Source: Psilocybe cubensis (Eukaryota). From it: DNA of 64,000 nucleotides. Position numbers and translations under genes: made by a program. Below are positions 1 through 35,321 of this stretch, piece after piece (positions within the stretch are counted from its first letter, which is position 1; every line of letters starts with the position of its first letter). The notes below the pieces were generated by a model. It saw only the letters and a list, made by a program, of their open reading frames with translations. It was not told where the DNA came from and ran no database searches. The stretch spans positions 868,001-932,000 of the forward strand of contig CM038998.1 of the NCBI GenBank assembly GCA_017499595.2, in the 5' to 3' direction.

Positions 1-1155
1 AAAATTTACCATGGCACCAATAAGCAATTCGAACATCCTCACAGGCTTTCCACGCAAAGGATCACCCATTCCGAGAATCAAGATTACATCGAAGGCAGTG
101 ATTAGTACACCATGCCAGAGCTCCAGCTTTGGGAAAAGCATGCAGAGAGCAATCGCAGATCCTAGAAGCTCAGCAAGGTCCGTGGCGATGATAGCAACTT
201 CCGCCAAGACATAGAGGGGATAAAGACCCAGCCATCGGTAAAGAAGCGTATGCTTAGGACGATTGTATAACAATAAACGTGTGTGGGAAGCGAGATCTAA
301 AGTGTGAATAAGTGTGTAAGCATTTCCTGATCCTAGAAGGGTGCTGCGGAACCAGCGAGAGAGGCCAAAGTGAATGGTGGAAAAAATTGGGGCGTTTAAC
401 ACGGAAAACGACGAAAATGAGACGCGAAGTAGGGTATATATAGGTTCCCGACAACCTCCTTGGGAGGCACATGGTTCCTAATTATACCCACACCTATGGC
501 TTGGATGTAAAATGATACGGAGCCGATGGCAAAGGCAGAGAAGGACTGCCCGCTACCATGCTAAGTTTTGAACGGGGCGGTTATGCCGGCGACAGAGAAT
601 TAATGGGAAGTTCACAGTTGGCTTGACCCAAAGGTCAGACCGGCACGCCAGAAGCACAGCGTACACCCAATGGATACTTAGAAGTCGTGTCGCTCCATCG
701 AGAAAAAGAGAAAATTCCAACAGTATGGCACATCAAACTCACCGATACCTGTCACGCAACCAAGTCGACTGGCAAGGACCTAAACAAAGTGACGTTTGCT
801 TATCAGAACCATACGGCGTTCCGTCAACCCATCAATGACGCCCACCTGGAGGAAGACAGCAAAGAGTCCCGCGAGCAGGACCACGAACAACAAGTGATAT
901 CCGAATTGGGAGCCTGCTTGGAGGTCGACGCCCCAATTACCACTGAATATCCACGCACTTCGTCATGCATGGCACATAGGCGAAAAGAGACAAGAGTACT
1001 CACGGGTCAAAATAAGCCACGGCACAGACTATACCGACGCCTGTGTGTTTCTTGCCATGGTGCACGACAACTGCGGCAGCATGTTTCAGGCGGCGGACAA
1101 AGGTGGCGGACGGGACGAGAGTGCTATGCGGGGCACTGGAGGGTGAGTCTGACAT
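1..1155 (-). CDS. NRAMP-family divalent metal (Mn/Fe) transporter, Smf1/Smf2-like; 5' part, continues beyond window start
   Basis: Spliced minus-strand translation gives GVGIVCAVAYFDP|GNWGVDLQAGSQFGYHLLFVVLLAGLFAVFLQ|VLASRLGCVTGI|DLASHTRLLLY...LYVLAEVAIIATDLAELLGSAIAL, with the NRAMP DPGN motif and TM1-TM3 signature; ATG at 1155. Confidence 0.93.
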
Positions 1156-5805: not shown

Positions 5806-7132
5806 ATGATTTTCCTTTCTTTACTTTCCGTAGCTTCAGCTACCGCAACCGCGGTTATGGCTGCAGAGATGGTTGTTCCCATCGATGTCAATGCCGTTCT
5901 TGGATTTGACGCCGGTCCCGACAATTTCTATAATGCCCCTGTTCCCCCATGGATTCCGGGTGCGGTACCTGGTTGGTATTATGGACCAAATCCTCAGAAG
6001 TATCCCGACCTTTGGACCCTCCATGATGTGAGCGCTAGAAATTTATTTTAAAATTCATTAACTGAATTTTCTCAGTTTATGTGCAGATTTTTGTGGTATT
6101 ATCCTAATGCCTTGCACTGCCCTGTCCCCAAACCCAGTCCTTTACCACCTACTACGACCACTACAACTACGACAGTGCTTTCTACAACAACGACAACGAC
6201 CACGGCTACAGTAACCATTACCGCAACTCCAGTCCCCTCGGACGGTTATATTGAGACGTTTGATAATATTACTGCAGCTGTTCAAGCAGACGATTTCATG
6301 ACATTTGGACTCGTTGAGACAGTCGATGGTGAGGCGTCTTTTATGAATTATTTTTGATCCCAAATAATATTCTTTGTGCAGACTGCAAGGCTATGTGCGA
6401 CTCCGTGCCTGGATGCACCTTTGTTAATTGTGAGTTTACACGAGTTGTCTCAAGGCGGCATCTATGATCTCAATCATCTGTAATAGCATTCCACGACGTC
6501 AACGGCAAGGTAAGGTCCTAACAATTGTCAATAGGATGTGATAACTAATAAGCTATTAGGGAGGTAGCACAGATCTTACATGTTCCCTCTTTAAGTTTTG
6601 CCACACTTCTGCGGATGCGGACAACGCAGGAGGGCAAAGCCAACCAGACGGCAGCATAGATTTTATCATCAACAGTGATGGTTGGTGCAAAGTCGGAAAC
6701 GCTACAACTACTACCACCACAACCACGCCATCTACACTCACGACAGAAACAACGACCGTCCCCACTCAAACCACAACAAGCACTTCAAAGTCAACTTCGA
6801 CATCAACTTCGCATACTAGCACCTCGACTCACACTAGTAGCACTAGCACGCACACCAGTACCAGCACGCATACCACTACTAAGACGAGCACAGCTCCTAC
6901 AAAAAGCCCAACGGGAATCGCTCACTACTACCAATGTGGAGGAATTGGCTACACTGGATCCACCTTCTGGTAAGCTATGTCTATAATACAGATGTATATT
7001 CATATTGATGCGGGTTTAACGACAGTATACCGCCGTACAAATGCCTCTATCAGAACCGTGAGCTTTTCGTTAATCTGCGCTGTATCAATACTGACGCATG
7101 TCACTTCAGCCTACTACTCCCAGTGCCTCTGA
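5806..7132 (+). CDS. Secreted protein: signal peptide, Pro/Thr-rich linker, Cys-rich PAN/apple-like domain, Thr-rich linker, C-terminal CBM1
   Basis: Hydrophobic N-terminus MIFLSLLSVASATATAVMA. Spliced exons give DCKAMCDSVPGCTFVN...FHDVNGK|GGSTDLTCSLFKFCH...NSDGWCK and poly-Thr tracts. C-terminus YYQCGGIGYTGSTFC..PPYKCLYQN|PYYSQCL* matches the fungal CBM1 consensus. Confidence 0.85.
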
Positions 7133-7799
7133 TCTCCAATAAGGTATACGGAAAGATTTTACATTTCACTTTTTCTTCTGGATTAAATTCATGAATTTTA
7201 AAGACAAAGAATGTTTGTCCTGGATTGATTGTCGTGCTTAATATACTCTTTAACAGTTGTGCTCCCATCGTGATGCGTATTTGCTCTGAATCACTAGTGC
7301 CTAATAGCAGAAATGAGATTTTGACTCCGCTTACTCAAGGAAAGTCGTCCCTGATGATGTTCGCCCGATTTGGAGAATGACTGAGACTGGGACCTGGCTG
7401 GGACTGTTGTGTCCAATTAATTGCACAGCGGGTGCTATATTTAAATTTACGTCAGGCATCCGATAAGTATCTAATCCATCGAAAAGCACATGTATGCAGC
7501 ATGCATACACAACTTCTCACTCGCAGTACTTGCTGAATCTAGACATTGGGAAGAAAATTCGATATGAGGAGTCATTCTGCATCGATATGAGTTGACCTCA
7601 CATCTTGAGCACCAATGAACGTTCACTAGCACTTACCGCTGTTTGTCGGAGATGGAATCTTCTAGCACAGGATTCGCAGGGGAGGTCCTCCGAAAAGCGT
7701 CCGTATCGCATTTCATCGTCATCTTCTGCCTTACTGTCTTTCCGTCTTTCACCCTGGATTTTGCACCTTGCGCCTCCCTCAGTTCCTTCAGCCTCCTCG

Positions 7800-8331
7800 A
7801 TGCATAACTCAAACCCTCCAACCTTCATGTATGAGGATATACCGTTTTACAACCCAGATGGCTATCTGGATAAGGACAAAGTTGATCGGTTGACATTCGA
7901 ATTTCGGGCATTAATCAAGAGGATTGAACAGAGGTACTAGTCGCCAATCTCCTATGCACGTATTAATGATATATCTGAAAAACGTTTCCAGCCCACCAGA
8001 GAGTCACGAAAGGAGAGTTCTACGTGATCTCCAATGTCTTGAGTTTCTGGATATACCGCTATTGTCGACGCATCCGAAGAAAGTTAGATATACAGGCAAT
8101 GATATACTTCCTGCTTTTCTTATGCATGTTTACGAGTCTGACAAGCTTCGACTCCATCGGAATGATATTTGGAGCTTAGGCGAAATCATGCTTCAGAATA
8201 TGGAGGATTGCTTGGTATGCCTCTGTGCATTTTTTTCCCGCAACAAAATTATAACCTGACTGTCCTCTCTCAATACACGGCAGTGTGAACTTCTTGCACT
8301 ACCTGAACTCAACATCAAATCGAATTTTTAG
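7800..8331 (+). CDS. Orphan family B copy 1 (~134 aa, 3 exons)
   Basis: Exons 7800-7933, 7992-8214 and 8284-8331 splice in frame: MHNSNPPTFMYEDIPFYNPDG...GNDILPAFLMHVYE...MLQNMEDCL|CELL...; aligns by eye with the copy at 14748-15286. Confidence 0.7.
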
Positions 8332-8733
8332 GTTTATACTTTGATATTCCAACTGCTTAAAGAAAGAATAATTTACATACATATTTGTGATGACCCGAGA
8401 GATTGTGCTATACAAAAAAGCAGTTCTAAAGTGATGATAATTCTCGTGAGGAAGCAAGATTGGATTGTGTGTATGGGTATCGTACTTTGAATAAAATTAC
8501 GACATAAAATTAAAATAACAGACGGCAACTTCTTGTTTGTAACATTTAAATCGAATATCATTATCTACGACCAATGAATCTGTGCGACGGCCACTATATC
8601 ATCTAGTTGCGCATTTATCAACAAGAAAAAAACCGATATGCGTGTCGGTCTCTTCTCCGACTGCCTCACCTCTCAATCCGCCATACACCAACTATATAGG
8701 GTAGATTACATTGAGGAACCACATGATGCATGT

Positions 8734-9382
8734 TCAGTTATTGGCAATGGTGGTTTTGTATTCAGTCTGACAAGATGCCCGATCGCGAGTTTTCCTAGGA
8801 GAGGAATCACATTGATTTGCTGTCCTGGCTTGATTCTTCCTGATATATTTGTCCACTTTATGGTTAGCATCCTTCTGCGAGTCGGCAAGGCTGTAGTCAA
8901 CTAGCGGCAATCCTTTACGAGTGGTGTCGTTTTTCCTTGCCGAGGCAAACTGCTGATAAACGTTTAAACAATAAAACAATTTGAGAACATGAGCGTTAAG
9001 TCATTCACCAAGTGAATCTTGATTTGGTTATGTATCCAAATTTTTAGGATGCTTGGCTTATATTTCCCATTTGCTTTCGCTTGTTCGTCCTCTTCCCACG
9101 TGTACACGTCGAGAATAAGTTTTTTCTTTCTGTCGTCCGGAAGCTCCTTCCAAAATTGATAAGACTTCACAGAAATTGGAGATCTAGATGTAAAATGTCA
9201 TAAAGTCACCTCGCAATTTGATTCAGAACTTACTTTTTAATGTAGTCGATGCATCCTTCAACTGAATCACGCAAAAGTTTATTGTACGCATTCCACTGTT
9301 CCCGTTTTTCGTGAATGCCATATCGTTCAAACTTAGCATTTCTCTCGGCAAAAATTTCGTCCAAAATATGACTGTACGCCAT
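8734..9382 (-). CDS. Orphan family A copy 1 (~180 aa, 3 exons)
   Basis: MAYSHILDEIFAERNAKFERYGIHEKREQWNAYN...IK|KSPISVKSYQFWKELPDDRKKKLILDVY...IKIHL|QFASARKNDTTRKGLPLVDYSLADSQKD; GT-AG introns at the same positions in all four copies. Confidence 0.85.
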
Positions 9383-9499
9383 TTTGTGACGAGGTTTGAC
9401 GCTTGGAAGTAGGGCTTTAGAACGAGGAGATCACTATGCTAAAGAGCCCCGCTTCGAATATGATCAACGTCCATCGATTGATAAGCTGCAACCATCGGT

Positions 9500-9517
9500 T
9501 TCAAACGGAGTTTCAAA
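9500..9517. promoter_or_regulatory. Conserved family-A upstream motif TTCAAACGGAG(C/T)TTCAAA, copy 1
   Basis: Near-identical 18-mer about 100-130 bp upstream of the ATG of every family A copy. Confidence 0.65.
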
Positions 9518-9649
9518 ATTAAAAAATCGTATGTCAGGTTCTGCGTGCAGAGATCCCATCCCAGTCGGGACTTCCTCTCAATGGCCGTCTGGGACACTGA
9601 AGATGGTACAAATGTATGTATTGTATATTCTTCTCACATCTCAGTAATT

Positions 9650-9867
9650 AGATTTATAGAGAACTTGAAGTACACCGCTCGTGAGCAACTGGCACAGGAA
9701 ATGGTCACCATTTTTACGGATTGTATGGTATGTGGCGAAGCTATTTCACTTTATGTCACCAGAAGCTTAACATGTTAATCATTTGATTTACACAGAGATA
9801 TCTTGGAATGCAAGTTGATACTGACGATTTGTCCAGCGGGTATAGAAGTTCTAGTGAACCTGCATAG
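9650..9867 (+). pseudogene. 5'-truncated family B remnant (end of exon 2, intron, exon 3)
   Basis: ...KYTAREQLAQEMVTIFTDCM|RYLGMQVDTDDLSSGYRSSSEPA* aligns with RYRVRKQLAIQMFNIFAECM|NTLGIELDDTSTGESGSGSGSA* of the intact copy; exon 1 not found. Confidence 0.7.
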
Positions 9868-11461
9868 ACCTATCCCTACCTCAGCCATTTACTCCAGTTT
9901 CTTATGGCGCTATTGTTTTGATAACCTAGATCTTAATGTTTCAACTCGATTTACTTCTTCGATAATAGCCGCATTAAAAAATACTATTTCTCAAATCTAT
10001 GTACTGTCACAGAATACTATCTACATTCATATGCATATGCTCACTGCTCACAATATACACTCAAAACCATTGTCGCGTTAGAAAAGCCTCGCTAAAAATA
10101 CTACTGGTCTCGCTAAAAACTCAACTGGCGACGATGGAGAATCCACAAATAACAAACAGAACAGAAAATAGGAGCATATAATGAATATACAACATCAATA
10201 CAACATCAATACTCAAACACTAGAAGGATGGTGGTATTCAAGAATCCATAATCTCAAGTCTGTTCGATGACCAGCTCTCCGTGTGGCGAGGTGCAGTAAT
10301 CCAAGTCAGGCAATTACTATTGCAGTCTTGGTATCCCAAGTTCTTGGACCCTAGTAAACTGCGCATGAACACGTTTTTCTCTCCCCCTTCTGATGCACGT
10401 TGTATATAGGATATAGGATGAATAAGGGAGAAAATCGCTATCAAACCATCAGCCACGGACACCCGCTCTGAGCTGCGACATCGTGCTCCTCCCCTAGGCT
10501 CTCACACACTTACACACACTTTCCTTGTATACTATCATTTCCCGAAGTGTCTCCGGGGCGCTGATCAGAAGTTTTAACAACCACATATCTAGAATTTTGC
10601 GCCCTGCACACTGGGACACCCAATTAAATTTGAATTAGATTGTCCTTCTAATTCACGCTTTCATGTAAATCAATCAAACAGTTGCTTTTCTCGAACTTTA
10701 AGGGATTTAAGATGGTTAAGATAGTTATAGACTGCTGCGCAATCCGGTTGCAAAAGCACGTCAACCTCTTCATCGGATTGGAAGTCGAGATGGCAGGAAC
10801 TAGTCAGAGTCAGCTCGAGTCAGCGGTAGCTTTTATCGCAACAACCATCATAATTCACAGCATTCTGAAAGCCAGATAATGCTCCCCCGCCACTGCAAAA
10901 AATCACATTCCCATCCAACTCCTGACGGTTTTCTAACGATACTTGAAGTTACGCGAGGCAACAACCTCTCAAGTTGATGCCCATTTCGGCCTGTGCTGTG
11001 TGTATACGTTTATGGATGTGTGTGTTCCAGATAAAATTACAACACGAAAATAACACATGCCTTAGCGTGGGGAGTGTACTCGGTGAGTGGTGTGTCTTCC
11101 TTTTCAATATATTCTCGTCCGAGTTTTCCATGGACGGTACCGGTGAATCCTTATCGTGGATGCTAAGAAATGACTTACTGTACTAGTCGGACACAATCAA
11201 GGAATAAATTATAAATAGTAGAGGACAGTCGGGGCATTCGCATCCACCGGTTATCTTCTAAGCGAAAACTAAAGAATCAATTGCTATGGGCATAAACGAG
11301 ATCGTCATTGTTCAGGTATAAATCGTAGATCCACAACGTATATCGTTTTTTTACTTTATATATTTGCCTCAGTACGATAATTTTCAATATGAAGTAGACA
11401 AAATTTTGAATACCCACATAATACAGGTTCATTCATGGACATCTCCAAAATTATTTGCACT

Positions 11462-12071
11462 TTAGTTTGCTGCTGTCTGAGCTTCCAGAGAAGAGATGTC
11501 AGTTTTTGGCTTGGCTTTGCCTTTAAGTTTTTTCGAGAATTTTTTCAACCACCGGTCAAAATCCTTTTGTGAGTCTGCGAAGGTGTAATCGACTAGTGGC
11601 TCTCCAGTGCGAGTAGTATCGTTTCTTCTTTTTGCGGCAAATTTCTGGCATGACTTATTATAGAACGGGTTTGAAACGAAACTTGACGAAAGACTGACCA
11701 AATGACACTGAAGTTCGCTTTTTATCCCGAGTCGTAGCTTGCCGGGGTAATACATCCCATTTGTCTCCTCTTGGTCGTCTTCTTCCATTTTGTAGATGTC
11801 AAGAATGAGCTTCTTCTTTCTCGGGTCTGAAAGATCTGCCCAAGCTTGAAATTCCTTCGTGTTGGTTGGAGAACTGAGAGTTGAACGTCATAAACGGACC
11901 ATGATCTCTGTGTTACTCGTACCTTTTAATCTGCTCTAAGCATTCTTCAACTGCCGTACGCAAAAGCTCATTGTAAGCGTTCCATTGTTCCCGTTTCTCG
12001 TGTATGCCATACTTCTCAAACCTGTCGTTTCTCTCGGCAAAAATCTCATCCAAAATGTGACTGTAGGACAT
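11462..12071 (-). CDS. Orphan family A copy 2
   Basis: MSYSHILDEIFAERNDRFEKYGIHEKREQWNAYNELLRTAVEECLEQIK|SSPTNTKEFQAWADLSDPRKKKLILDIY...LQCHL|KFAAKRRNDTTRTGEPLVDYTFADSQKDF. Confidence 0.85.
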
Positions 12072-12199
12072 GTTGTACTGAGATTTGTGGTCAGGTATCA
12101 AGGTACTAGTTGAACGAGTTGATTCTGATGAGTTGGCACACTATCAACAGCCACCGTTAAGATTATCGACGATCGATCAATATCCTGAGGAGAATTGGA

Positions 12200-12217
12200 T
12201 TCAAACGGAGCTTCAAA
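12200..12217. promoter_or_regulatory. Conserved family-A upstream motif, copy 2
   Basis: TTCAAACGGAGCTTCAAA, 129 bp from the A2 ATG. Confidence 0.65.
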
Positions 12218-12622
12218 ATACGTATCTAGGTCTGTCTAGGAGATACTAACTCAACCATGGGAAAAAATCTTGGTTCTGACAGTGAGTGTGGATGTGAGTC
12301 CCTCTCAATAGGCTCCACCCGGGCCATTCCTATATTTTATAATTGGATCTAAGATCGTCGAGAGGTTTTCAGATGCCACAATTATGGGATTGCACAATCA
12401 GGCTGCATCGATTACAAAGGTCGAGAAAGAGATTACTAATGATGTGATCTTTATCCTCTACTGCACGACCACGACGCCTTACACACCCATATTGAATTGT
12501 TGTTATTCATAAAATATACACACGTATAAACGACATGTATCTTCCCCCACTGTATTTCTGCATCTGAGTATGACAAATTTAAGTACAAACCAGATAGAAT
12601 TATATACCCACATATCTCACTT

Positions 12623-13273
12623 TCAGTTACTGACCACACTTGAATCATTTCCACTGCCACACGCCACATTGACGTCCCGAGGAGAGGCATCAATTGGCCC
12701 TTCCCTCCCGGCTCTATGTTTTCGCACGAATCTCTCCAACTTACGGCCAAAATCTTTGCTCGAGTCTTGAAGGCTGTAATGGGCATGTGGATCTCCAGTC
12801 CGTGTAGCATCGTTTCTTCTTGCCACTGCCAATCGCTGATAAAGCGTGTTAATTTGTACACCACGGATCAGAGTTAGGTCTTGAAGGAGATTACCAAGTA
12901 GATTTTAATTGCATTCCATATCGATATTCGAAGTATGCTAGGCAGATATTTTCCGTTCCTTTCTGGCTGATTAATGTTTTCTTCCCGCTCATAGACTTCG
13001 AGAATAAGTTTTTTCTTTTTGTCGTCTGGAAGCTCCGTCCAAAATTGGAAAGACTTTGCAGATTTTGGGGAGCTAACAGTGAAACTTGTCGTAAAGCATG
13101 CTTTCAAATCAATTTATCACGTACTTTTTGATCTGTTCAATGCACTCTTCCACTGCATCACGCAAACGTTGATTGTACGCGTTCCGTTCTTCTCGCTTCT
13201 CGTGTATGCCATATTTTTCAAACCTCGCATTCCTCTCTGCAAATATCTCGTCCAAAACATGGCTGTAAGACAT
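12623..13273 (-). CDS. Orphan family A copy 3
   Basis: MSYSHVLDEIFAERNARFEKYGIHEKREERNAYNQRLRDAVEECIEQIK|NSPKSAKSFQFWTELPDDKKKKLILEVY...IKIYL|RLAVARRNDATRTGDPHAHYSLQDSSKDF. Confidence 0.85.
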
Positions 13274-13373
13274 TTCTGCAGTGATTCAAGGTTTAGGGAA
13301 ATAGAGGTGAAGTCTTAAAAACTCCCTTGAGATAATCAACATGAACATCAATCGATATGCTGTCACGACAAAA

Positions 13374-13391
13374 TTCAAACGGAGCTTCAAA
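13374..13391. promoter_or_regulatory. Conserved family-A upstream motif, copy 3
   Basis: TTCAAACGGAGCTTCAAA, 101 bp from the A3 ATG. Confidence 0.65.
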
Positions 13392-13404
13392 GGGCATCCA
13401 CCCA

Positions 13405-13570
13405 AACTGTATGTTATGTTTGACGACTGTATGGTGAGTTCCACGATCCCGCTTCCTCTGATTATTCGAGATAACGAGATTTATGATCTAACTTTCTCTC
13501 AGAGTTCAATGAAAGCTCTTCCGTAGAGGCGGGAAATAGCAGCGGATCTGCATTAGATTGTCCCAAATGA
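13405..13570 (+). pseudogene. 5'-truncated family B remnant
   Basis: KLYVMFDDCM followed by a GTGAGT donor, then EFNESSSVEAGNSSGSA, matching the exon 2 end (MFNIFAECM) and exon 3 (ELDDTSTGESGSGSGSA) of the intact B copy. Confidence 0.6.
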
Positions 13571-13614
13571 TGGTATACTTCTATAGGGCTCTGGGTGATC
13601 GTGTAACAAGAGGG

Positions 13615-14236
13615 TCAACGAAGGTTACGATGGAATACTGCTTGAGATTCCCTTCGAGGATCATTGAGTTCTTTCTCCGCCGCGGCTTTATTCCTTCGCT
13701 CTAATTTATCCAACTTACGGTGGAAATCTTTGTGCGAATCTTCAAGGCTGTAGTAAACGAGCGGTGCTCCAGTCCGTGTTGTGTCGTTTCTTCTTGCCAC
13801 AGCAAATTGCTGGTACAACATGAGATATACAAATATTCAAAGGTAGAAATTGAGATAAAATTACCAAGTAGACCTGAATTTCATTCCACATTCGAACTCG
13901 CAATAAGCTAGGCAGATATTTTCCGTTCCTTTCCGCTTGATTATTCTCTTCCCACGCATAGATCTCGAGAATGAATTTTTTTTTGTTGTCGTCTGGAAGA
14001 TCACTCCAATACTGAAAAGACTTTACAGCCCTCGGCCTACTAATATACCTGTTATACAGTACAGATGAGAGCCAATGTACTACTTACCTTTTGATGTGCT
14101 CTATGCATTCTTCGAATGTACTGCGCAATAGTTCATTGTACGCATTCCACTGTTCTCGCTTCTCGTGTATACCATACTGCTCAAACCTCGCGTTTCTCTC
14201 GGCAAAGATTTCATCCATGACATGACTGTAGGACAT
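13615..14236 (-). CDS. Orphan family A copy 4
   Basis: MSYSHVMDEIFAERNARFEQYGIHEKREQWNAYNELLRSTFEECIEHIK|RYISRPRAVKSFQYWSDLPDDNKKKFILEIY...IQVYL|QFAVARRNDTTRTGAPLVYYSLEDSHKDF. Confidence 0.85.
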
Positions 14237-14333
14237 CTTGAATGTGATGTGAGTATAAGTGTCAAGATCCTAATAGGAAGTAGATCTCCGTTGAGAAGAT
14301 CAATGACCATCGATTGATATGCTGTGAATGGAG

Positions 14334-14351
14334 TTTAAACGGAGCTTCAAA
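14334..14351. promoter_or_regulatory. Conserved family-A upstream motif, copy 4
   Basis: TTTAAACGGAGCTTCAAA, 98 bp from the A4 ATG, inside the A4/B4 divergent spacer. Confidence 0.65.
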
Positions 14352-14747
14352 AGAACCAATATAGGATCCTCCCGACATGGGAAAAGAATCCTCAATTTGA
14401 CATGCAAACACACAGTTTGGACATTTTTCTTAATTTCCATTGTTTTCCTTAGTTTACTTGTATCTAAGATCCTCGATTGACAGTATCATGGGAATTAGCT
14501 ACGGTTCCAGTCTGAATCGCTTCCGATTTCGAACGGGCGTTCATTGATGTGATTTCCTTCTCATGCTTCGACATGACTCAAGTACAACCGTCTGATATTC
14601 CATGCTGCAAACCAGGGATACGGGACTGTGGAAGCTGCTCATCGACGACATATAAAGAGCCAGAAAATTCTCTGTCCAGTACTTGTCCCCCTCTGCTCCT
14701 GTAACCAATACACATCATCTTCAATACCCTTCTAACGAACAAGCAAG

Positions 14748-15286
14748 ATGACGAGCACAAATCAAGCGCAAGACAAGTTCTACTTCAATATACCTTTTGA
14801 CAACCCTCAAGACTTGAATATTCCTTATGTTCTCAAAGAATTCAGGACGTTTTCTCGCATGATGAGAGCGGAGTAATAACCTCTTCTTCTCCCTTCTCCA
14901 TCGCGCAATATTCATTCTTGTTTGTCTATAGAAAAATCGAAAGCCCCACCAGGCGTCTATGGAATAATTTCACTGGTATGAGGGTGACCATGAAGCTTAA
15001 TGCCTACAACAATCAAGATTTCGAGTTCGCCTATGGTGATGTTCAACCGGCAATAACCATGTACGTATTCGAGCACATCTCGGGTAGAGAGAGATATAGG
15101 GTGCGCAAGCAACTGGCCATTCAGATGTTTAACATATTTGCGGAGTGTATGGTATGTAATTTGATCTCACCTTTCTGCATATTCAAGCTGACGAGAATCA
15201 TTCAACTTCTTCCGTAGAATACGCTTGGAATAGAGCTCGATGATACCTCTACTGGCGAGTCTGGAAGCGGCAGTGGATCTGCGTAA
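14748..15286 (+). CDS. Orphan family B copy 4 (~137 aa, 3 exons), head-to-head with A4
   Basis: Exons 14748-14872, 14932-15151 and 15218-15286 splice in frame: MTSTNQAQDKFYFNIPFDNPQDL...YGDVQPAITMYVFE...QMFNIFAECM|NTLG...; TATA-like CATATAAA near 14650. Confidence 0.75.
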
Positions 15287-17063
15287 ATCTATCCGGACAA
15301 TAGCGATTCTTTATAGGATTATAATTTCTATTCTACCAAGTTCCCCGGACACCCGGGAATTTTGTTTTCAATGTTCGTTGATAAATCACATTTCTGTACT
15401 TTCTTATGCTACTGCTGTTGGGGTACATGTGTATCTAGTTAGAGCACTCGCTTTATAACCACCCAGGCTTCTTTATCAGATTGAAAGATTCTAGTAGGTC
15501 CTAAAGGTCATTGTGCGTCAACGTCAGATTCATGAAATATGTCAACGACACCAACTAGGCGACCGCATTCTGCGGCTAAGTCAAATTTGCAAACCCACGT
15601 TGGCGCCCATCTCGGCACTTGCCGATGAAGCATTCCACACCGCTAAGTACATACGTAATCCATAGTATGTAATGAAGTTATCAGTTGATAAGAGGGTCCC
15701 GATACCCCGTTTGGGCAATGGGAGCTTTCTGGCGCACAGTTTGGGGCGCGATGATTGTACAGCTGGCAGACATCTACCTACTAACTTTGGCTGCGACAGG
15801 TAGGTTCCTGCTTGATTCGGACGACGAGGAGTTTTACAGTCCCATGTCATCATGTAGATGGAATAGGAAGCGAAATGGTAATGGTACTCGGGCTCCCACG
15901 TTTGTCCAACAAGGCCTGCGCGCGTGCGCCTTCTACGTCATACTTCACCATACCATACCATAACATATCATAACATACCATTGCAGAGTCGTTGGGCTAA
16001 AATGGTACAGCGGGGCCCAAGCGTCATTTATTTCATCGTCTGTAGTAGTGGGTTATCATAATAATAGCATCATATTGTGTGTTGCGCCTCTTGAAGTAAG
16101 CATAATAAACAGTCTCGAATTGGGCCATTCACCAGTTGAATGGAGTCGGATCTCGTCCAGTATATGAACAGCAACACCCACTGTGACTCGACCGGTATAT
16201 CCTCGACAACCACTCGCCCCGAACATATCTGCGACATTCAAGCGCTCGACGCTCATAATCCCATCATCTATAATCCATAATTGATCCATAATCGAAATCC
16301 ATTATCACTGAAACACCAACATACATACATACCCACACCTACCAGCCCTTATCGCCAGCTACATACTACCCCGAGACACAGACGCACCGGTGCACCTCAA
16401 GCATCAAGTAACCTACTTTGCGGCACCAGTACCACACCCCCCTAAGGGAGCAACGGTGACATAATCATTACGCCCCTATCTAAAGCAGTAACCACCACTC
16501 TCCGCGAGCATCTCTAAACGGTCGTCCGCGCATTGCGTGCTTGTGACTGAAACAAAGCCCACCCACCTTGGTCCTTGTTTCTCTTTCTTAATACTCCCAA
16601 CACCCGACGATATCCCAAGGATTCCCTTTTTAACCCCTTCATACGCGTACCCGGTTAGTCTTGCTTCTGCTGGCATGTGCTTATCTCTGACTCGACGCTG
16701 CTTCAGTGTCCATAAACAACCCATTCCGAAGCCAGCCCGAAACTTCCGCCTCCCCGTCCTCGTTTACTTCATCCCCCTCGCGATAAGCTTCAAATAATAA
16801 AGCCACGCCGTGATCCCTTGATCCAGTGAGGTATTTCCATCTTGTGTGTTGGCGTCGAGGCTGATTTGCTCTTGGTGCGTGTCGTCGAAGCAGCATCTAC
16901 AGAGAATTTGAATCGTACCACATACCCTTATCGTTGACTCTTTCGACGCTTCGTACACCATAATACCCGCATACCGCATACCGTAATCCGACCAGGTTTT
17001 ATAATTCGCATCCCATCTTATAATCCAAATAATACCAACACACCACCATACCAATTAACGACC

Positions 17064-18017
17064 ATGTCTCCCGCCCGCTCGCGTTCTTCCGCTCTCGCTG
17101 CTTTTGTCGGTGCCAAAGGCAGAGGTAACTCCACCCCAGACGCCGGGTCAAAGTCAAAGACGAAATCCAAATCCAAGGCCAAGTCAAAGGCCGCAGCCGC
17201 CCAATCCAAAGAGATTGAAATCGAGTTCGAGACTGAGGCGGGTAAGAAGTGGACAAAGGGGAAGAGTGGGAGTACAGCGTGTGCGCCGTTCAAGCCGGCG
17301 AATGGGGTTGAGAAGGAGGTGATGTGGGAAGCGCAGGATACGGCGGTTGCTGTGGATGTAAGCCTCGATGTTACACCTGCATCGAAGCCTGTGTCCAGTC
17401 ATCCTCCACCACCGGGATTACCTGTGAGAACGGGGAGTCTGAAGGCTCGGGCGGACGCTAGCAAGGGGAATGACGGCAAGGAGAATGAGGGCACGGGGAA
17501 GAAGGAAGAGGTGGACGACGACGACGACATGGGGCTAAGTGCTCGGGATGTGCGTGCGTACGAGCACGAACGGCAACGGGTGAAGAAGGCAGAGGAAAGA
17601 GCGGCCAGGATGGCGAGGAAGGAGATTCAGAAGGCGCATATAGTCGCAGGCGGTGGTAGTGGAAGAGGCGCCAAGGCGTGGGAGGATGCGGAGTACGTCG
17701 TGCACTCGTCAGCGAAGGCGCACAAGAGGGCAGAGGACGACCGTCACACTGTTGTCACACCGGCGGCAAAGCGCAGCGGGGAGGAGATTTCGCTCTCCGA
17801 CCTCGTCAAGCTCAAGCCGAAGAGCCGTGGACAGCGGGCGGGGCGTGAAGAGGAGTTTGAGCTGGTGCCGGCCGTGCGGGCTGTGATCGTGCTCGACGAG
17901 GCCGAGTTCGGCAGCGGAAAGCGGGATATGGAAGTCGATGATTGGGAGTGCGTGGATGTCGAGGTCAAGGAGGGTTTGTCCTACGCCCAAGTCGTTCTTG
18001 GGTTGCACATCGATTGA
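17064..18017 (+). CDS. Hypothetical protein, charged/low-complexity, single ORF
   Basis: 317-codon GC-rich ORF with coding-like codon bias; C-terminal EFELVPAVRAVIVLDE...DDWECV...LSYAQVV segment; no function recognised. Confidence 0.7.
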   Translation: MSPARSRSSALAAFVGAKGRGNSTPDAGSKSKTKSKSKAKSKAAAAQSKEIEIEFETEAGKKWTKGKSGSTACAPFKPANGVEKEVMWEAQDTAVAVDVSLDVTPASKPVSSHPPPPGLPVRTGSLKARADASKGNDGKENEGTGKKEEVDDDDDMGLSARDVRAYEHERQRVKKAEERAARMARKEIQKAHIVAGGGSGRGAKAWEDAEYVVHSSAKAHKRAEDDRHTVVTPAAKRSGEEISLSDLVKLKPKSRGQRAGREEEFELVPAVRAVIVLDEAEFGSGKRDMEVDDWECVDVEVKEGLSYAQVVLGLHID

Positions 18018-18843
18018 TTGATTTTTACTGATTACGATGGGAATGTAATGTAATGTATAATATATATCATAGTGTACTTTGTAGGTCAGATTTCTCTCAA
18101 GGGTGAAAACCGTGAACAAACAAAACCAAACTCCATCGATGGTCGCGAGCGTTTTCGTACTCTTCTACTTTTGTACCCCTTTGTACTCTCCTATCAACCT
18201 TTTTAGCTCTGGTAGCTAAATCGGGCGTATACTGTCTGCAAGAAACTCTTTCAATGAAATCTCCTGTGCTATGTAAAATCACCATAACTGGCACAAGGCC
18301 GAGTGCCACACCATCCCTGAGGTCAAATATATGCGCATTTATGAAGAAAAAGAATCCAGATAATTGTGTACAGCTAGTTCTTAATGTTTACAGATACATC
18401 AAGGATTTTGAACCCGTATCTCCCTTGAGTGACACCAACATGAGCATGACACAACGAAGTTGTGGTTTTGAAGTACCGCAATTTGTGGGAGTACGCCAAG
18501 GCGAGCGAACCACACCGACGAGGATGCGTATTCTATTCATCCACCATCATCCCTCCTCATGATCATTCACTCGTCCAATCAATATATACAGGCTATTGCT
18601 CCTCCTCCGCAAAGTGGGAGACATAACCAGGTCAGAAGCAAGCCAATGGCATGTAACTGTTACTGATAAAAGTACATTTTGTTGGAATGCTATGAGCGTA
18701 GCAAAACTCATTTAGACTCATGTACGGAAAAGCCAAGAGGCTTTTCAACTGCATGAAGACTCTGTTTTTTAATTTTCCGTAATTAATTACGGATATTGGA
18801 CCACCTCAATTACAGTCAATTATCCATCTCTCGGCCGATGCGT

Positions 18844-18878
18844 CTTCAAGCTTCAAGCTTCAAGCTTCAACGTTCAAT
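18844..18878. repeat. 7-bp tandem repeat (CTTCAAG)x3 plus two degenerate units
   Basis: cttcaag cttcaag cttcaag cttcaac gttcaat read directly. Confidence 0.8.
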
Positions 18879-19257
18879 GTTAGGATTGGAGATATGGCTT
18901 ATGAGCGCAAGTGTGTGAATAATTGGTGATGTGATGACAAAAGGGGAATTAGCAACGAGGCTCAAGCTCTGAACAAATATCAAAACAAGAAACACGTTTT
19001 CGGATGCTCCTTGCTGCACGGATTCAGATACTCGAAATCCTCCTTGCTTCTCCCACCCACCAGCGGTGGAACGATACGAACAGATTTCATTGACGGTGAG
19101 TGTGCAACAACCCCACAGTTTCCCAGGACCCATCACACGATCATCAACCTAAACCCCTTCCATCTTCCTTCCGATATAGTTCGTTCATATCTCTTGAACT
19201 GGACACCGTCCTTCCACCCCAGCATCCGACCCGGCCTGATTCAGTCTAGTTCTGTGC

Positions 19258-22200
19258 ATGGCCCCCAACTTTCTCCAAAAGTTCGTCAAGTCTAGCACCA
19301 CTTCGACCAACTCTAGCAACAATACACCGCGGGAAAGAGTCTCTTCGGACGTATATTCGTCTCTGCGCTCGCCGAGTGAGACCGGATCGTCTTCTTCTCA
19401 AGCGCATTCGAGCGGAAGCGGGAGTGGGACCACTTCACCTGGAGGAAGAGCACGCGCGGCGACGATTCAGACAGCGAGCGGCTCCTCATCTTCGCTTACC
19501 TCGCCGACTACGCCGACCCAGGCGAGTGTCATCTTAAAGGGTGTACAACAACAACAACAGCAAGCGCAATCGGGGAGGAGGTCGCCGTCAAGAAGGAGCA
19601 GCACCAACAACAGCAGCGACAGGGAGCGTGAGACGAGTCGAATTCCGAGCATTATCACGACGCTGAGCGGGCGCAGTCGGAGCAAGGGCAGCAAGGACAA
19701 GGAGAAAGAGAAGAAGAAGAAATCGGACAAGGAGAAGAACGCTAACGCAAACCGCGACTCCCTCACCGTTCAGAACCACCACACCCCCCTTAGCGCCGGC
19801 GACCGCACGAGCTGGGGCAGCGCGTACAGCTCTCAGCCTAACTTTACAATCGTCCCGCCCTCGCCGCTTGTGCGTAACGGGGATTTATATTCATCTGATT
19901 CGGACGCCTACGACAACGAAAACGACAACGACGCCGCCACAACCCACTCGAACACAAACACGAACTTCAACGGCGCGAGCCCGAACACAGCGGAGGATCA
20001 GGATAGCGCTGCGACGCCTACTTTGCCGAGCTTTAGTGGTAGCGCGAGCCAGTCAGGGGCATCAAAAAACATCCACGGTGAGTCTCATGTCGTGTCATGT
20101 TGGCTTTTTGCTGCCGCGCTGCGCTCCGTCATCACTTTAACTTGCACTTTCGCTTTCGCTTGTACTCCTCGACTCTTTATCATACCATTCATACCTGCTA
20201 TCGGCTTGTTTCTTGCTTTCGTCGCTTCTGCTCTCGTCCCCGTTCCCAATCCCACGCTCCGCCCCTTTCACTTTCCCTTTCTCTTTCCTTGAATACCTAA
20301 TTCTTTACTCGGGTACACCGTGCTAACCCTCTCTTCCCCCAGCCACTCCCTCAAATTCAACATCCAGCACGTCCTCTACTCCTAACACCTCTTCCTCCTT
20401 TACCAACAACTCCTCTCATACCTCTTCGTCCAATACCAACACATCCAACACCTCTGACCACGACGCCTCCGACCACGACATGTCCAACCTTGCCCCCGGC
20501 GCATACCAAGTCCGCAAAAAACCCTCGAACCGTTCCATCAAAAACGGCGCTGCGCCTCCCGAAATCAACGTAGCGGCCGCAGCCGCGACGCTGGGCGGTG
20601 CGCCGCAGGCCGTGAACGGGAGCACAGCAAATGGCAGTGGTGAGGGAGCAGGAGGGGAAGAGCCAGTGAACGGCGCGGTGACGCAGCGCCCGATAGTGGA
20701 AAGTCCAACGGACTTAAAATTCCCTGCACCTGCCTCGTCTGGGAGCGGGATGACAGCATCGACCTCCACCTCTACGACCGCCTCCTCTGCAAACTCGAAC
20801 CTCGGCGCTCCGTCCTCATCAACCACCCTCCAGCGCGAAAACACAACCTCGTCATTGTTCTCCCCTGACGCCACAACCAAAAGCAAACGACCGTGGAAGC
20901 GCAGCACGACGCGCAAACCCACCGGCCTCGCGAGCGCTATTGCAGCGAGCGGGCTGGCAATGGCGAACCCGTCGCTGAGCGCGGCGCAGAGTGCGCAGAT
21001 GCCCGTTGTACCTGTCCCGCCGCCGGCGCTGTCTGCTGGGAGCTCGAAGGACAAGGATAGCAATGACCCGTACCTGTCGAGAAGCCCTGCGCAGAGTGCT
21101 GTGAGTACAGGTAAAGGCCGGCATACTAAAAGCAGAAGTGGAGAAACGTCACCGCGCAGCTCAAAGTCTCGGAAATCGAGCATGGGCTCGCCGCCGAGGA
21201 GCGGGACGGGGCGGTCGCGGCGCGCGTCGTCTGCAAAGTCGACGGATGAATTTGGCGCGCTCCATCCTTCGTCGTCTAACCGCGCGAATGGTGGCAACGA
21301 TGACACTGGCTCGAATATCTCTCGGCGACCGTCGTTCTACAAGTCACTGATCTCGCATTCGTCGTCGGGTTCGTCGGATTCGGATTCGGATTCGGGGAGT
21401 GTGGATAGTAGTGATTTGGATATTGGGGAGGAGGATATACCTGTGACTGGATTTGCGGTGGCGAGCAATAAGAGGAATGCAGACTTTCATGAATTGTTTC
21501 CTGGGGTGCCGGAGGGTGATTATTTGATTGAAGGTACGTGATTTTTTCCAAGTTGGATGTTGAGCGATTGATGCTTATAATTGATTTTTGGTGGGTGGTA
21601 GATTATGGATGTGCTTTGCAAAGGGAAATCCTCATCCAAGGCAGGATATATATATCCGAAAACCATATTTGCTTCCATGCAAATATTTTTGGGTGGATTA
21701 CGGATGTGAGTGTTTCGCTACATTTTTCTGTTCTTTTCTTGTCTTTGTATTTCATCGGAACCTCGTTTCTGCTTTCTTCTTTGCTTTTCTGCCTTTGCTT
21801 CTTGGAATCCTGGGGACGTTGGGTTCATTTGAGCTGGTTAACATATCTGCATGTTCTTCATCCCGCCGTCTCCATCAACATTATGTTTGATTTCCTCCTT
21901 TCGCAAATCGTGCACCTCCTCCACATAAATCACATATCACACCTACTAAAGTAGGTCGAAATCTCGTTGTTTGTGATGTTGGGTAGTGTAAGGTGTGAAG
22001 GGCCGGTGCGACACGCGATTTGCTATGTGTTATGTTAGTGGGCCGTTTCCCGGCCAGGAAGGTTTCGAATCCTGCGTATGATGCGCGTGGTTGGTAGTGG
22101 AAATGTCCTGGTTCATATTCTGGTGCATTGACCTGGTTATTTTGTTGATTTCTCTCTCTTTCTCTTTGATTTCTTAACTTTCTTTAATAATTTGATGACT

Positions 22201-24282
22201 GCAATCCAAATTTTGGAGGGAGATGGCGGACATGACGCTGTGCAGGTCTCAGCGTCTAGTTCGTTCACGCTTGTATCTTCTTCGTCTGGGTCTTTGTTAA
22301 CGTCGGCGGTAGCACCCGACGCGAACTGCTCTATCTCCTCTTCTCTGGATACCTCTTCCTCTTCAAAAACAAATGCTGACTCTTCTTCCCCCTCTCCCCC
22401 TACCCCCACCACCTCTCTCTTTGCCTACCTAACCCACCAGCTTTCCATCCCCATCTACGAAATCACCTCGCTTGAGAAGAAAATGACAGCCTTCGTCATC
22501 CCGAACGGAATCCAAATCACCACGCGTCAGGCCAAGTACACCTTTGCATCCTTCCTCTCCAGAGACACAACGTTTGATGTCATCTATAACATCTGGAGGC
22601 TCGCAAGGCCGGAGGACAATGTGTCGTATCTGTCAAGTGGGCGAGGGTCCGGGTCTGTGGAGGCGAATCAGGGTGCGGTTGGGAGAAAGGCCATGGATGG
22701 GGCGCCGTCGACGAATGCTAGTGGGGGTGCGCCTGCTGCTGCTGCTGCAGCTGCGCCATCTGCACTGACAGGGGTGCCGCAGCGAAAGGCGACGCAATGC
22801 ACATGTGGAAAGGAGAACAAGCATTATTCGGAGATGGCGATGGACGTGACCTTCCCTGGTACACCCGAGAAGATCAATAGTTTGATGTTCACGAGCGGGT
22901 TTATCAAGGATTTCATGGTTGGGAACCAGAAGCTGCTTGGTGAGTTTTTTTTTTCCTGTTTCACTTACACAAACCGCATCTTCTGAACTATGTGCTTCCT
23001 TCATGTAGACATCCAAATGTCCGACTGGTCGCCCGTCGTTCCAGGTTCCAAGCTGCTCACGCGCAACTTCTCCTACATCAAACCACTAAACGGCTCGCTC
23101 GGCCCGAAGCAAACGAAGTGTGAGCTCAAAGACGAGATGGTGTACTGCGATTACGACAACTATGTGTCGACGGTGACTACGACGCGTACGCCGGATGTGC
23201 CGAGCGGGGGCGTGTTTTCGGTCAAGACACGGACGTGTGTGACGTGGGCGGGCCCGATTAGTACGAGGGTGTTAGTGACGACGCAGGTGGAGTGGACGGG
23301 AAGGAGCTTCATCAAAGGTGGGTGGCTCGTCTTTTATCACCGTTGTGGCTGGCTGGCTGTCTTCCAGCTGACCTGCGCGTGGGTGCACAGTTGGATGTGC
23401 TTCCGTGTCAATTAATGATTATCATTCATATTTGATCAAATTGGCTGATACACTTTTGGACTTGTAGGTATCATCGAACGCTCTGCCATCGACGGGCAAA
23501 AGGTTTACCACGCTGAACTTGAAAAGTGCATGCGCTCATACATCCAAGAACACAAATCCGAGTTCTTGCCAGAGGGCATCGATGCATCCGCTGTCACCCC
23601 CGCCGAGGCTGCGCCCGCGCCCTCTGCTCCCGATGCCACGACGGCAGCTGCTGAGTCACCCTCGGAGAAGCCCTCGCCAACCCAAGACGAGCTGAAACAG
23701 CGCGAACGCGAGCGTAACGCGCGCGGGTTGCAGTGGGCGTGGGATACGTTCGATGGCGCGTGGCAGGTCGCGCTGCGCAGCACTAAGGGCGCGTTAGAGC
23801 TTATCCGCGACGCGTGGGACCAGAGCTCGAGCACGACGATTCTGTGGTTTGTCATTGTTGTACTGGTGCTGAGCAATATCTGGACGCTTATGCGCATGGG
23901 CTCCGGCCGCGCGCAGGCGGACCGCAAAATTGAGGTGCGCAAGGTCGAGGAGAGGGAGAAGTGGGTGCAAAGCATCGTTACGGCACTGTGGGATGAGTTG
24001 AATGAGAAGGCTGCGGAAGCAGGGAAGCCCGGGTTGCCATATAGACATGGGCATGGGCAGCCTGTACGACCTGTGGCGTCGGAACAGGTGCCGTTGGAGA
24101 CGATACCTACAGCGTCGGTCTTGCCATATCCCGAAGACGACCTGGAAGCGCGCAGGGTAAGAAAGGCTCATCTTGAGCTGGAAGTCCAACAGCTATACCA
24201 GTCCCTCGAGGCTCTCGAACAACGGGTGCAAAGCATTAAGCAAACCCTGGCAAACGATCTGGTTATAGATCAACTGGATTAA
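19258..24282 (+). CDS. LAM/Ltc (Ysp2/Lam4-like) GRAM + VASt/StARkin sterol-transfer protein with C-terminal TM anchor
   Basis: GRAM: KRNADFHELFPGVPEGDYLIE|DYGCALQREILIQGRIYISENHICFHANIFGWITD|LSIPIYEITSLEKKMTAFVIPNGI...FASFLSRDTTFDVI. VASt: YIKPLNGSLGPKQTKC...TPDVPSGGVFSVKTRTC. TM: ILWFVIVVLVLSNIW, then a coiled-coil tail. Confidence 0.93.
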
Positions 24283-34031: not shown

Positions 34032-35321
34032 CTAAATCTGCTCTAGGCCAGCCAAGTCTTCAAACCACGATACGACGGCTGCGACCTTGCGCACACAGGG
34101 CTCGCTGATCCCCAAACGTAGATCAGGCCGCATCCTCCCATCTTCGTGGGAATAAGGCATAGTGCGATAGCAAATGGTTAGGATCGATTTCAGGTAGGGC
34201 GACGCGGATAAGGTGATTGACGCTGCAGGATCACAGGAGGCCATAACATCTAATTGGAAACATAAAGGCTCAGCCTGAAAAAGAGCAGAAACAAAGGAAT
34301 AGGAGGAGATACATACTCTCTAGGTGCACGATATCCCCCCGTTTCGTTGCAACCGCTTTGCCCGCACCGCCCCAATCCTCAGCAATTTCTCTCCACGCAG
34401 TGAGTTTGCAGACTGTTCCCTCCTCGTCACCCAATACTATTTTGAGAATGGACACCTCCTTCCCGGCCTCAGCTCCGTTTTTGATACGAATTGTATCGGG
34501 ACCTTCGACCTCCAACACGGCGAGTAGACAACTGATTTTGACCGACCCTTTGAACTTTCTTTCAACGAGGGAGGAAAGAGACGTGAGAGTGTGTAGATTA
34601 AAATGAAAGGAAGGAAAACGGGCAATCGATGAGGCGTCAGAGTAGTTACCAAAAGATTGGGACTCTGGGTCTTGCGTCTCCAGAAACCGCGACTGAGATT
34701 CAGCCGAAGCTTGCGTTTCAGGAGGTGAAGTTTGAGGAGGTTCTGAGCCGCGGCGAAGGAGGGACGAGTTGGAGCCTAATGAGGATGATGTGTCTAATAG
34801 GAAAGAAGGGGCATTGAAGCTATCTTTCGATTCATCAAGCTCGTCATCTACGGGTCGACTCGGTGGCCACGAAATTAGGGTAGTCTGTTCTATTTCATGG
34901 TCTCATCATTTAGCATGGTAAAGCAGATCGACATCCAAGGCTCACCTTTGCCTCGAAAGACGGACACTTCAGCAGTATGTTCGGCAGGCACACCAGAATA
35001 TTCTCCCTGTGTCCCATCAATGTTGTCGGTCGCAAAGCTTTCCTCCACAGGATCCTCTGGACCCTCACTGAATACTAAATCTTTGTAAATTAACGATATC
35101 CGTCGACTTGCCTCTTCCAAGGTAGCAAGAGGAATAACAATAGAGGACTGGATCAAACGACTTTCAGACGTCCCTTGGGTAGGATATAAGAAAGATTTCG
35201 TAGATTTAGTGAGTTTCAATGCGATCCCTGAGCTGTTCGAAGAAACGGTTCGCCATGAGTAGGTGCTGGGGTCGTTATTGATCTCAGACAACGAAGGAGC
35301 TCCTAAAAAGACTCTATACAT
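34032..35321 (-). CDS. OB-fold protein resembling shieldin subunit 2 (SHLD2/FAM35A) N-terminus plus first OB fold
   Basis: MYRVFLGAP...YSWRTV N-terminus; Ser/Glu-rich linker with ETQ/ESQ repeats; OB-like KISCLLAVLEVEGPDTIRIKNGAEAGKEVSILKIVLGDEEGTVCKLTAWREIAEDW...KRGDIVHLE; 3 exons. Confidence 0.75.

Follow-up and report, generated by a model that had tools for sequence, protein, structure and literature searches.

Tandem families of lineage-specific (orphan) genes are described by the general concept of birth-and-death evolution, and in the HD1/HD2 loci of Agaricomycetes divergently transcribed gene pairs are repeated in an array, some of them lacking a partner. Fungal killer drivers (wtf, tdk1, Spok, and rsk/rfk-1 of Neurospora) are small, fast-evolving, and lineage-restricted genes forming multi-copy arrays with degenerate copies, and the best studied of them are single genes. 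To our knowledge, no two-gene selfish or recognition system is yet on record for mushroom-forming fungi. Here we analyze an array of two small gene families, A and B, at 7800-15286 in a window of 64,000 nucleotides (nt) from Psilocybe cubensis (GenBank assembly GCA_017499595.2, contig CM038998.1, positions 868,001 to 932,000, forward strand); the window means this whole stretch, and coordinates are counted from its first letter. A sequence-only reading had proposed that the array might be a partner-specific toxin/antidote, allorecognition, or drive-like locus. From our analyses, it is probably a co-regulated, Psilocybe-restricted cluster which evolves by birth and death and in which A and B have no obligate pairing.

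The locus resembles orphan tandem families in its tandem paralogues with pseudogene fragments between them, its restricted range (for A), the absence of a known domain, and its strain-level structural variation, and it holds copies that are expressed (B1, A2, and A4) or constrained (A). It is unlike them in that in P. cubensis the repeated unit pairs two divergent genes and carries a conserved promoter cassette, and in that decay is confined to one family. With the HD1/HD2 locus it has in common a divergent pair (A4/B4, with start codons 511 nt apart) and the repetition of such units, some of which lack a partner, but no homeodomain came up at E<=1 in 10 translated pieces of A and B, in line with the earlier view that this is not the HD mating locus. 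Furthermore, the A and B proteins have 134-185 amino acids (aa) as against several hundred in HD proteins, the alleles in two strain runs (X6 and X7) differ by about 1-2.5% without deep allele classes, and no peptidase-M3 (MIP-type) match was found among the 20 flanking open reading frames (ORFs) scanned. As for het and allorecognition loci, the Pfam scans gave no HET, NACHT/NB-ARC-plus-repeat, or prion-forming family in A/B or in these 20 ORFs. The features of killer drivers listed above are shared by A and B, but the P. cubensis unit comprises two genes, and no similarity to drivers was found for A and B in Pfam or for the A profile in PDB, libraries that cover a part of the driver families. 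They are also without wtf-like membrane segments.

Layout of the array and the duplicated unit

Along 7800-15286 the order is B1(+), A1(-), B remnant(+), A2(-), A3(-), B remnant(+), A4(-), and B4(+) (Table 1), and both the repeat finder and the gene models reproduce the order and strands of the sequence-only reading. Intact at the locus are four A genes (JR316_0000242-245, on the minus strand, ~170-180 aa each) and two B genes (B1 and B4), all six with three exons, in addition to two 3' B remnants. The repeat finder recovered three A blocks (D1, 196 nt; D2, 132 nt; D3, 105 nt), which are the three exons of family A, each in four minus-strand copies with 61-80% identity to the reference copy. 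Gene models were obtained by mapping database proteins back onto the DNA, with A1 and B1 modeled by hand; the translations of the locus ORFs are 87-100% identical to the proteins JR316_0000242 to JR316_0000246, and an alternative UniRef model of JR316_0000243 was matched as well. A1 has 180 aa in the three-exon model and 185 aa in the database model P0004, which has another 3' end. The introns are of the GT..AG type and measure 49-59 nt in A2-A4 and 49-66 nt across A2, A3, A4, and B4, and in B1 and B4 the first intron is in phase 2 and the second in phase 0, both placed alike. The A4/B4 pair is intact and divergent, its 511 nt from the A4 ATG (14236) to the B4 ATG (14748) agreeing with the ~510 bp read at first. 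B1 meets A1 tail-to-tail, and no A gene faces it head-to-head. Elsewhere in the window, tblastn gave no additional copy of A or B.

B1 and B4 are distant homologues: they share 24% identity across 83 aa with a pairwise E of 1e-5, and their Smith-Waterman score of 61 compares with 26.3 +/- 4.5 in shuffles, none of 1000 shuffles scoring as high. The 3' B ends that had been seen beside A1 and A3 stood up to the same kind of test. Beside A1, the remnant (9684-9733) matches the end of B4 exon 2 (15108-15157; repeat family D8) with 76% DNA identity over 50 nt, scores 43 against 19.7 +/- 2.4, and gives 50% over 20 aa in tblastn, the 5' half of the gene being gone. The remnant beside A3 (13501-13551) scores 32 against 18.1 +/- 2.2 with B4 exon 3 (15232-15282); neither score was reached in 300 shuffles. 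The spacer between A2 and A3, described at first as resembling the A4/B4 spacer with B gone, indeed holds a 35-nt patch in common with that spacer (score 32 against 19.4 +/- 2.3; 0/300 shuffles) and no B coding relic (score 18 against 19.9 +/- 2.3; reached in 266/300 shuffles).

The divergence between the remnant beside A1 and B4 (76% identity, as above) is about equal to that between A1 and A4 (69%), which argues that A and B were copied together. The duplicated unit was a divergent A<- ->B module rather than a single gene, as the sequence-only reading had it, and the cassette common to the A copies points the same way. B1, at 24% protein identity to B4, is a much older and separate B paralogue.

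Upstream of every A gene lie two conserved motifs (CATCGATTGATA.GCTG and TTCAAACGGAG.TTCAAA in the A1 cassette), about 80-135 nt 5' of the ATG, which together form a cassette of ~60 nt. When up to three mismatches are allowed, TTCAAACGGAGCTTCAAA has five matches in the 64 kb against 0.08 expected, four of them upstream of A genes (0-1 mismatch) and the fifth at 62476 with three mismatches. For CATCGATTGATATGCTG, with 0.10 expected, there are three matches, which lie upstream of A1, A3, and A4, and a weaker copy of this motif (D7, 70% identity) is found upstream of A2. The cassette is positioned just past the 5' ends of the A2 and A4 RNA contigs, those of A2 stopping at 12139-12148, just on the gene side of the A2 cassette. 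In the A1 and A3 units, B sequence starts again shortly past the cassette, and therefore the deletions took the B promoter and the 5' half of the gene while sparing the A cassette. A heat-shock-element-like site (GAAnnTCC) was considered for the cassette motif and dropped, as the spacing misfits the consensus.

We propose that a divergent A<- ->B unit was duplicated in tandem and then went through birth and death. All four A copies would have been kept intact, each with its upstream cassette, while only the 3' end of B survived in two units and nothing of it in a third, so that B4 alone remained. The A paralogues may be co-regulated via the common cassette, as its conservation suggests, and A would act without an adjacent B gene and within the cell. 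On this view, any tie between A and B would be a loose partnership or regulation from the spacer that they share, and not a matter of cognate pairs.

Transcripts, constraint, and range

Runs X10 and X11 were taken as RNA on the guess of the tool, and their intron-less joints are absent from the DNA runs X6 and X7. Both B1 introns (7934-7991 and 8215-8283) are spliced out in contigs of X10 and X11, and both A2 introns (11645-11698 and 11874-11922) are absent on one contig each in X10 and X11. For A4 (introns 13810-13864 and 14040-14087), spliced contigs occur in X10 and exon contigs in X11. B1, A2, and A4, with transcripts in the same two RNA runs, are real and transcribed genes. No RNA contigs were found over A1, A3, or B4 in X10 or X11, though this does not show these genes to be silent.

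The RNA corrects two of the database models. The NCBI model of JR316_0000243 (P0001, 186 aa) keeps an in-frame 54-nt intron 2, and the 168-aa UniRef model of A2 (P0002) is backed by spliced contigs in both RNA runs. In JR316_0000245 (P0005), the acceptor of A4 intron 1 (14037-14087) lies by RNA 3 nt upstream of the annotated one, and the corrected acceptor adds one residue exactly at the gap of P0005 in the family alignment. Two further features of the transcripts were observed. A 64-nt CT..AC joint (GT..AG on the minus strand) at 11354-11417, seen in X10 only, lies 3' of the A2 stop and would be an intron in the 3' untranslated region. The B1 contigs start at 7581-7586 in both runs and give a leader of at least 214 nt, with an upstream ORF (ATG at 7652, end at 7807) that overlaps the B1 start codon at 7800.

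Among themselves, the A paralogues are 54-62% identical over their full length and 60-69% identical over the first 150 columns. In five of the six pairs the synonymous divergence (dS) is 0.94-1.70, the sixth being saturated, and the ratio of nonsynonymous to synonymous divergence (dN/dS) is likewise 0.19-0.29 in five of the six. On these rates, the A paralogues are old duplicates under purifying selection. The first 50 residues are strongly constrained (columns 1-50 with dN/dS of 0.04-0.13 in five pairs, the sixth not computable), and the C-terminal tail has values of about 0.5-1.5.

A word-based search of 5.8 billion proteins found P. cubensis only: at E<=10, the A2 ORF kept 2 of its 11 candidates, the B4 ORF 1 of 2, and P0002 5 of 79; with A2 it returned no P. 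cubensis protein beyond the four at the locus. Among 1.84 billion representatives, a profile of the four A proteins had four matches at E<=0.001. One is the representative of the family itself, one is a repeat protein from a bacterium, and two are exon-sized fragments, each on a Logan contig of 2,035 nt; one of these fragments shares its cluster with the Psilocybe cyanescens protein CVT25_002656 (225 aa), which on its similarity is judged a clear A orthologue. The bacterial protein P0008 (1694 aa, E 9.3e-11, eight stretches) matches profile positions 121-147 only and was rejected as a repeat-amplified chance match, its own sequence repeating '..DESQKDF.YK..'. Scans of metagenomes gave 598 pattern matches with the A profile and 87 with B4, none of which was confirmed. 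Within the proteins searched, A appears restricted to Psilocybe (P. cubensis and P. cyanescens). The range of B is less certain than that of A, as it was covered by word-based, Atlas, and metagenome searches only.

CVT25_002656 is 44-48% identical to each A protein over the first 150 columns, as against 60-69% among the paralogues; the fourfold expansion of A would for this reason postdate the split of P. cubensis and P. cyanescens, unless gene conversion homogenized the copies. In the tree, CVT25_002656 stands outside the A paralogues on a long branch, with unsupported forks and a root placed by midpoint only. No mention of the six A/B protein accessions was found in the literature searched, and the literature searched on the Psilocybe genome and mating, orphan tandem genes, toxin-antidote systems, and the P. 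cubensis transcriptome yielded nothing on this locus.

Variation between strains and the question of A-B pairing

The runs X1-X9 each contain 0.60-1.00 of the locus words, and no presence/absence polymorphism of the whole locus was seen among them; X6-X9 contain 0.60-0.67, or ~1.3-1.6% divergence by the arithmetic of 31-letter words. Contigs were compared across the locus in the two strain DNA runs X6 and X7. Their long contigs differ from the reference by 23-53 letters per ~2.1 kb, and a few short contigs at 9854-10301 and 13068-13460 are 6-8% diverged. This divergence is not of the deep allelic kind of mating-type or het loci.

Strain-specific insertions and deletions sit in both B remnants and were counted as remnant decay: X6 has a 38-nt deletion (9632-9669) in the remnant beside A1, and one X7 allele has ~94 extra nt, matching B4 15036-15129, in the remnant beside A3. 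In A2, X6 carries a 49-nt deletion (11683-11731) in which exon 2 loses 33 nt from its end and intron 2 loses 16 nt from its start, the donor included; loose ends of X6 lie at 11098 and 12229. The junction of this deletion makes a new GT, and an in-frame product shorter by 11 residues is conceivable. The most polymorphic part of the locus is 9854-11100, within the 1.5 kb that separate A2 from the remnant beside A1: X6 has two haplotype contigs there, of which one shows 31 other letters and 24 gaps over 438 nt, X7 has several small deletions, and a loose end lies at 11098. No A- or B-like coding sequence was found in these 1.5 kb.

Coding effects were counted for 40 listed differences, which reach as far as position 9496, with 303 more beyond. 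The A1 coding sequence has 15 of these, 11 nonsynonymous and four synonymous (2.8% of its length), all three in B1 are synonymous, and 22 fall in about 1550 nt of non-coding sequence. At four variable A1 sites the non-reference base is present in all three other paralogues, and at three more the reference base is present in none of them. The other allele carries R120C and D132N, where all three paralogues keep the reference base and the residues are invariant in the family alignment. A1 looks relaxed or diversifying in both alleles.

These data bear on the partner-specific system of the sequence-only reading, in which B would be a toxin or label and A the antidote or receptor of its cognate neighbor, the B-less modules being antidote-only or resistance units. 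We regard such a system as improbable. That duplication took A and B together as a single divergent unit, that both are lineage-restricted orphans, and that A was kept while B was lost in three of four modules, as if antidotes outlive toxins, would all fit, as would the far faster or longer divergence of B (24% between B1 and B4) than of A (54-62%), the structural differences between strains, and the mostly nonsynonymous differences in A1 (11 of 15 listed); the fit of antidotes outliving toxins to the observed decay, together with the A1 excess, is why this reading keeps some weight. It is disfavored by the great age of the A paralogues and the purifying selection on them, by the three modules in which A stays intact without B, by the shallow divergence of the alleles (long X6 and X7 contigs about 97.5-99% identical to the reference), by the ordinary genes around the locus, and by the lack of a head-to-head A partner for B1. 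Whole-locus absence was not seen, no toxin-like feature was found in B, and the Pfam scans linked nothing here to the wtf, Spok, HET, NLR, or homeodomain families. A bolder form, in which the array would be the remains of a toxin-antidote or nonself-recognition element new to Basidiomycota, with a harmful or labeling B disabled in three of four modules and a protective A of which A1 is diversifying, strikes us as quite improbable. None of the tests run supported a toxin/antidote, allorecognition, or drive function, and several results lean against it.

Possible, though rather unlikely, is a benign arrangement in which A and B belong to one non-selfish pathway, as plain partner subunits or under common regulation, and one or two B proteins serve every A, the extra B genes having become redundant and decayed. 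A divergent pair with a short common spacer, the opposite net charges of A and B, the transcripts of B1, A2, and A4 in the same two RNA runs, and the persistence of two intact B genes (with only synonymous differences listed in B1) agree with it, but B1 and B4 at 24% identity are hard to treat as interchangeable partners, and the low-confidence B4 model makes structure uninformative here.

Several points weigh against the birth-and-death cluster that we favor. Co-duplication, a basic A beside an acidic B, and the common 511-nt spacer are also expected of a true two-protein partnership. The range of B was covered by word, Atlas, and metagenome searches only, and co-regulation by the cassette is suggested by its conservation alone. 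Not every A is indispensable, given the X6 deletion in A2, and the 11 nonsynonymous against four synonymous differences in A1 do not resemble simple purifying selection acting across all copies. If the favored reading is true, the locus is a clean, small example of a young two-gene unit that was amplified and then pruned, with a short promoter cassette kept at every copy while the neighboring gene erodes. Such an outcome is not surprising; it is of use for annotation, with two database models corrected by RNA, and as a case study of orphan-gene evolution in mushrooms. The importance would be much greater if A and B were a partner-specific selfish or recognition pair.

Protein properties and chromosomal neighborhood

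The Pfam scan of 10 exon or ORF translations of A and B (E<=1) gave no family at cut-off, and the statement that neither family has a known domain therefore holds; only two hits came below threshold, to DUF4303 (15.6 bits against a cut-off of 23) and DUF1199 (13 bits against 25), and both were judged noise. The A proteins have an isoelectric point (pI) of 7.7-9.4, a grand average of hydropathy (GRAVY) of -0.89 to -1.07, and a highest 19-residue hydropathy of 0.03-1.27, with no membrane-type hydrophobic stretch. They are predicted to be soluble, basic, and very hydrophilic, without a signal peptide or membrane segment and with a disordered tail. The AlphaFold2 (AF2) model of A from a four-row alignment is a six-helix bundle, with a predicted local distance difference test (pLDDT) of 76.7 and a predicted template modeling score (pTM) of 0.69, and the ESM Atlas model of A4 is of like quality (pLDDT 0.77, pTM 0.69). 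The A profile had no PDB sequence matches at E<=10, and of the 161 PDB matches that Foldseek gave for the A model at E<=10, none reached E<=0.001. Cytomegalovirus IE1, the best match of a wide VIA-align search (Z 8.4, 118 residues aligned), was the sole one with Z>=8 among 48,161 chains; it lies under the tool's stated noise for helical bundles and was rejected as a common helical arrangement.

By language-model features, the ESM Atlas clusters nearest to A4 are unnamed hypothetical proteins of Ascomycota (scores 0.92 and 0.92; 188 and 178 of 256 features in common; 123-153 aa) which, like A, have no Pfam family. This likeness is one of features only, proteins of this type are absent from the A profile search at E<=0.001, and the clusters may serve as a lead only. 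The B proteins are small and acidic (pI 5.3-5.8). The AF2 model of B4 from a three-row alignment has a mean pLDDT of 46.6, too poor for a fold search, and the Atlas model has a pLDDT of 0.38, with phage hypothetical proteins as nearest clusters at chance level (0.89-0.90). Pfam scan and hydropathy gave no toxin-like features in B (membrane segment, nuclease, or kinase domain).

The 20 large flanking ORFs had no transposon, homeodomain, STE3/pheromone-receptor, HET, or NACHT match in Pfam, and nine had no Pfam family at all. The flanking genes are, from their predicted families (e.g., Nramp, ABC, MFS, and SMC hinge; Table 1), ordinary chromosomal genes. This observation bears also on the alternative that the array is cargo or relics of a transposable element, or an artefact of gene prediction. 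We consider this alternative largely refuted and scarcely credible. Repetition, pseudogene fragments, and a lack of homologues are what it would lead one to expect, and contigs of X6 and X7 do break beside the locus, but no transposase, integrase, or reverse-transcriptase domain occurs in 10 locus pieces or in the 20 flanking ORFs, and the repeat finder gave two short imperfect inverted pairs only in 6000-17500, with no terminal repeats flanking the units. Moreover, the word-based A2 search found no other P. cubensis protein, a P. cyanescens orthologue exists, and spliced transcripts with canonical introns together with dN/dS well below 1 are the mark of real host-type genes.

Table 1. Positions in the window of the array features, the flanking ORFs with a named Pfam family, and the long contigs of two strain runs.
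Feature	Position	Strand	Details
B1	7800-8331	+	exons 7800-7933, 7992-8214, 8284-8331; 134 aa; hand model
A1 = JR316_0000242	8734-9382	-	exons 9234-9382, 9009-9183, 8734-8952; 180 aa
A1 upstream cassette	9462-9519	-	repeat families D6, D7; four-way upstream alignment; motif counts
B remnant beside A1	9659-9867	+	exon 2 end 9659-9727, intron, exon 3 equivalent, stop 9865-9867
A2 = JR316_0000243	11462-12071	-	exons 11923-12071, 11699-11873, 11462-11644; 168 aa as in P0002
A2 upstream cassette	12161-12219	-	repeat families, upstream alignment, motif counts
A/B spacer relic beside A2	12327-12361	.	matches 14445-14476 of A4/B4 spacer
A3 = JR316_0000244	12623-13273	-	exons 13125-13273, 12895-13072, 12623-12835; 179 aa
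A3 upstream cassette	13346-13393	-	repeat families, upstream alignment, motif counts
B remnant beside A3	13400-13551	+	last exon 2 codons (..MFDDCM), intron, degenerate exon 3
A4 = JR316_0000245	13615-14236	-	exons 14088-14236, 13865-14036 (14039 by RNA), 13615-13809
A4 upstream cassette	14298-14353	-	within 511-nt A4/B4 spacer
B4 = JR316_0000246	14748-15286	+	exons 14748-14872, 14932-15151, 15218-15286; 137 aa
Nramp ORF	1-477		Pfam
GRAM ORF	22132-22986		Pfam
ABC transporter ORF	25608-26567		Pfam
Shieldin-OB-like ORF	34270-34902		Pfam
MFS ORF	37378-39078		Pfam
Nse4 ORF	40109-40723		Pfam
ABC ORF	43423-44154		Pfam
SMC hinge ORF	51497-52270		Pfam
TauD ORF	56950-57855		Pfam
X6 contig	7320-9441		34 other letters, 6 gaps; 2118 nt contig
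X6 contig	13433-15564		42 other letters, 34 gaps; 2166 nt contig
X7 contig	7000-9147		23 other letters, 7 gaps; 2143 nt contig
X7 contig	13433-15548		53 other letters, 23 gaps; 2129 nt contig

The contigs of X6 and X7 both break at 15938-15981, with loose ends on either side, at a short-repeat stretch of the CATACCATA type. The GC content is 0.40-0.44 at the locus and rises up to 0.53 beyond 16 kb, and the break is probably a dispersed or variable repeat bounding the AT-richer locus. Beyond it, at 16938-21541, lie three long ORFs (359, 350, and 404 aa) with a GC content of 0.48-0.54 and without a Pfam family.

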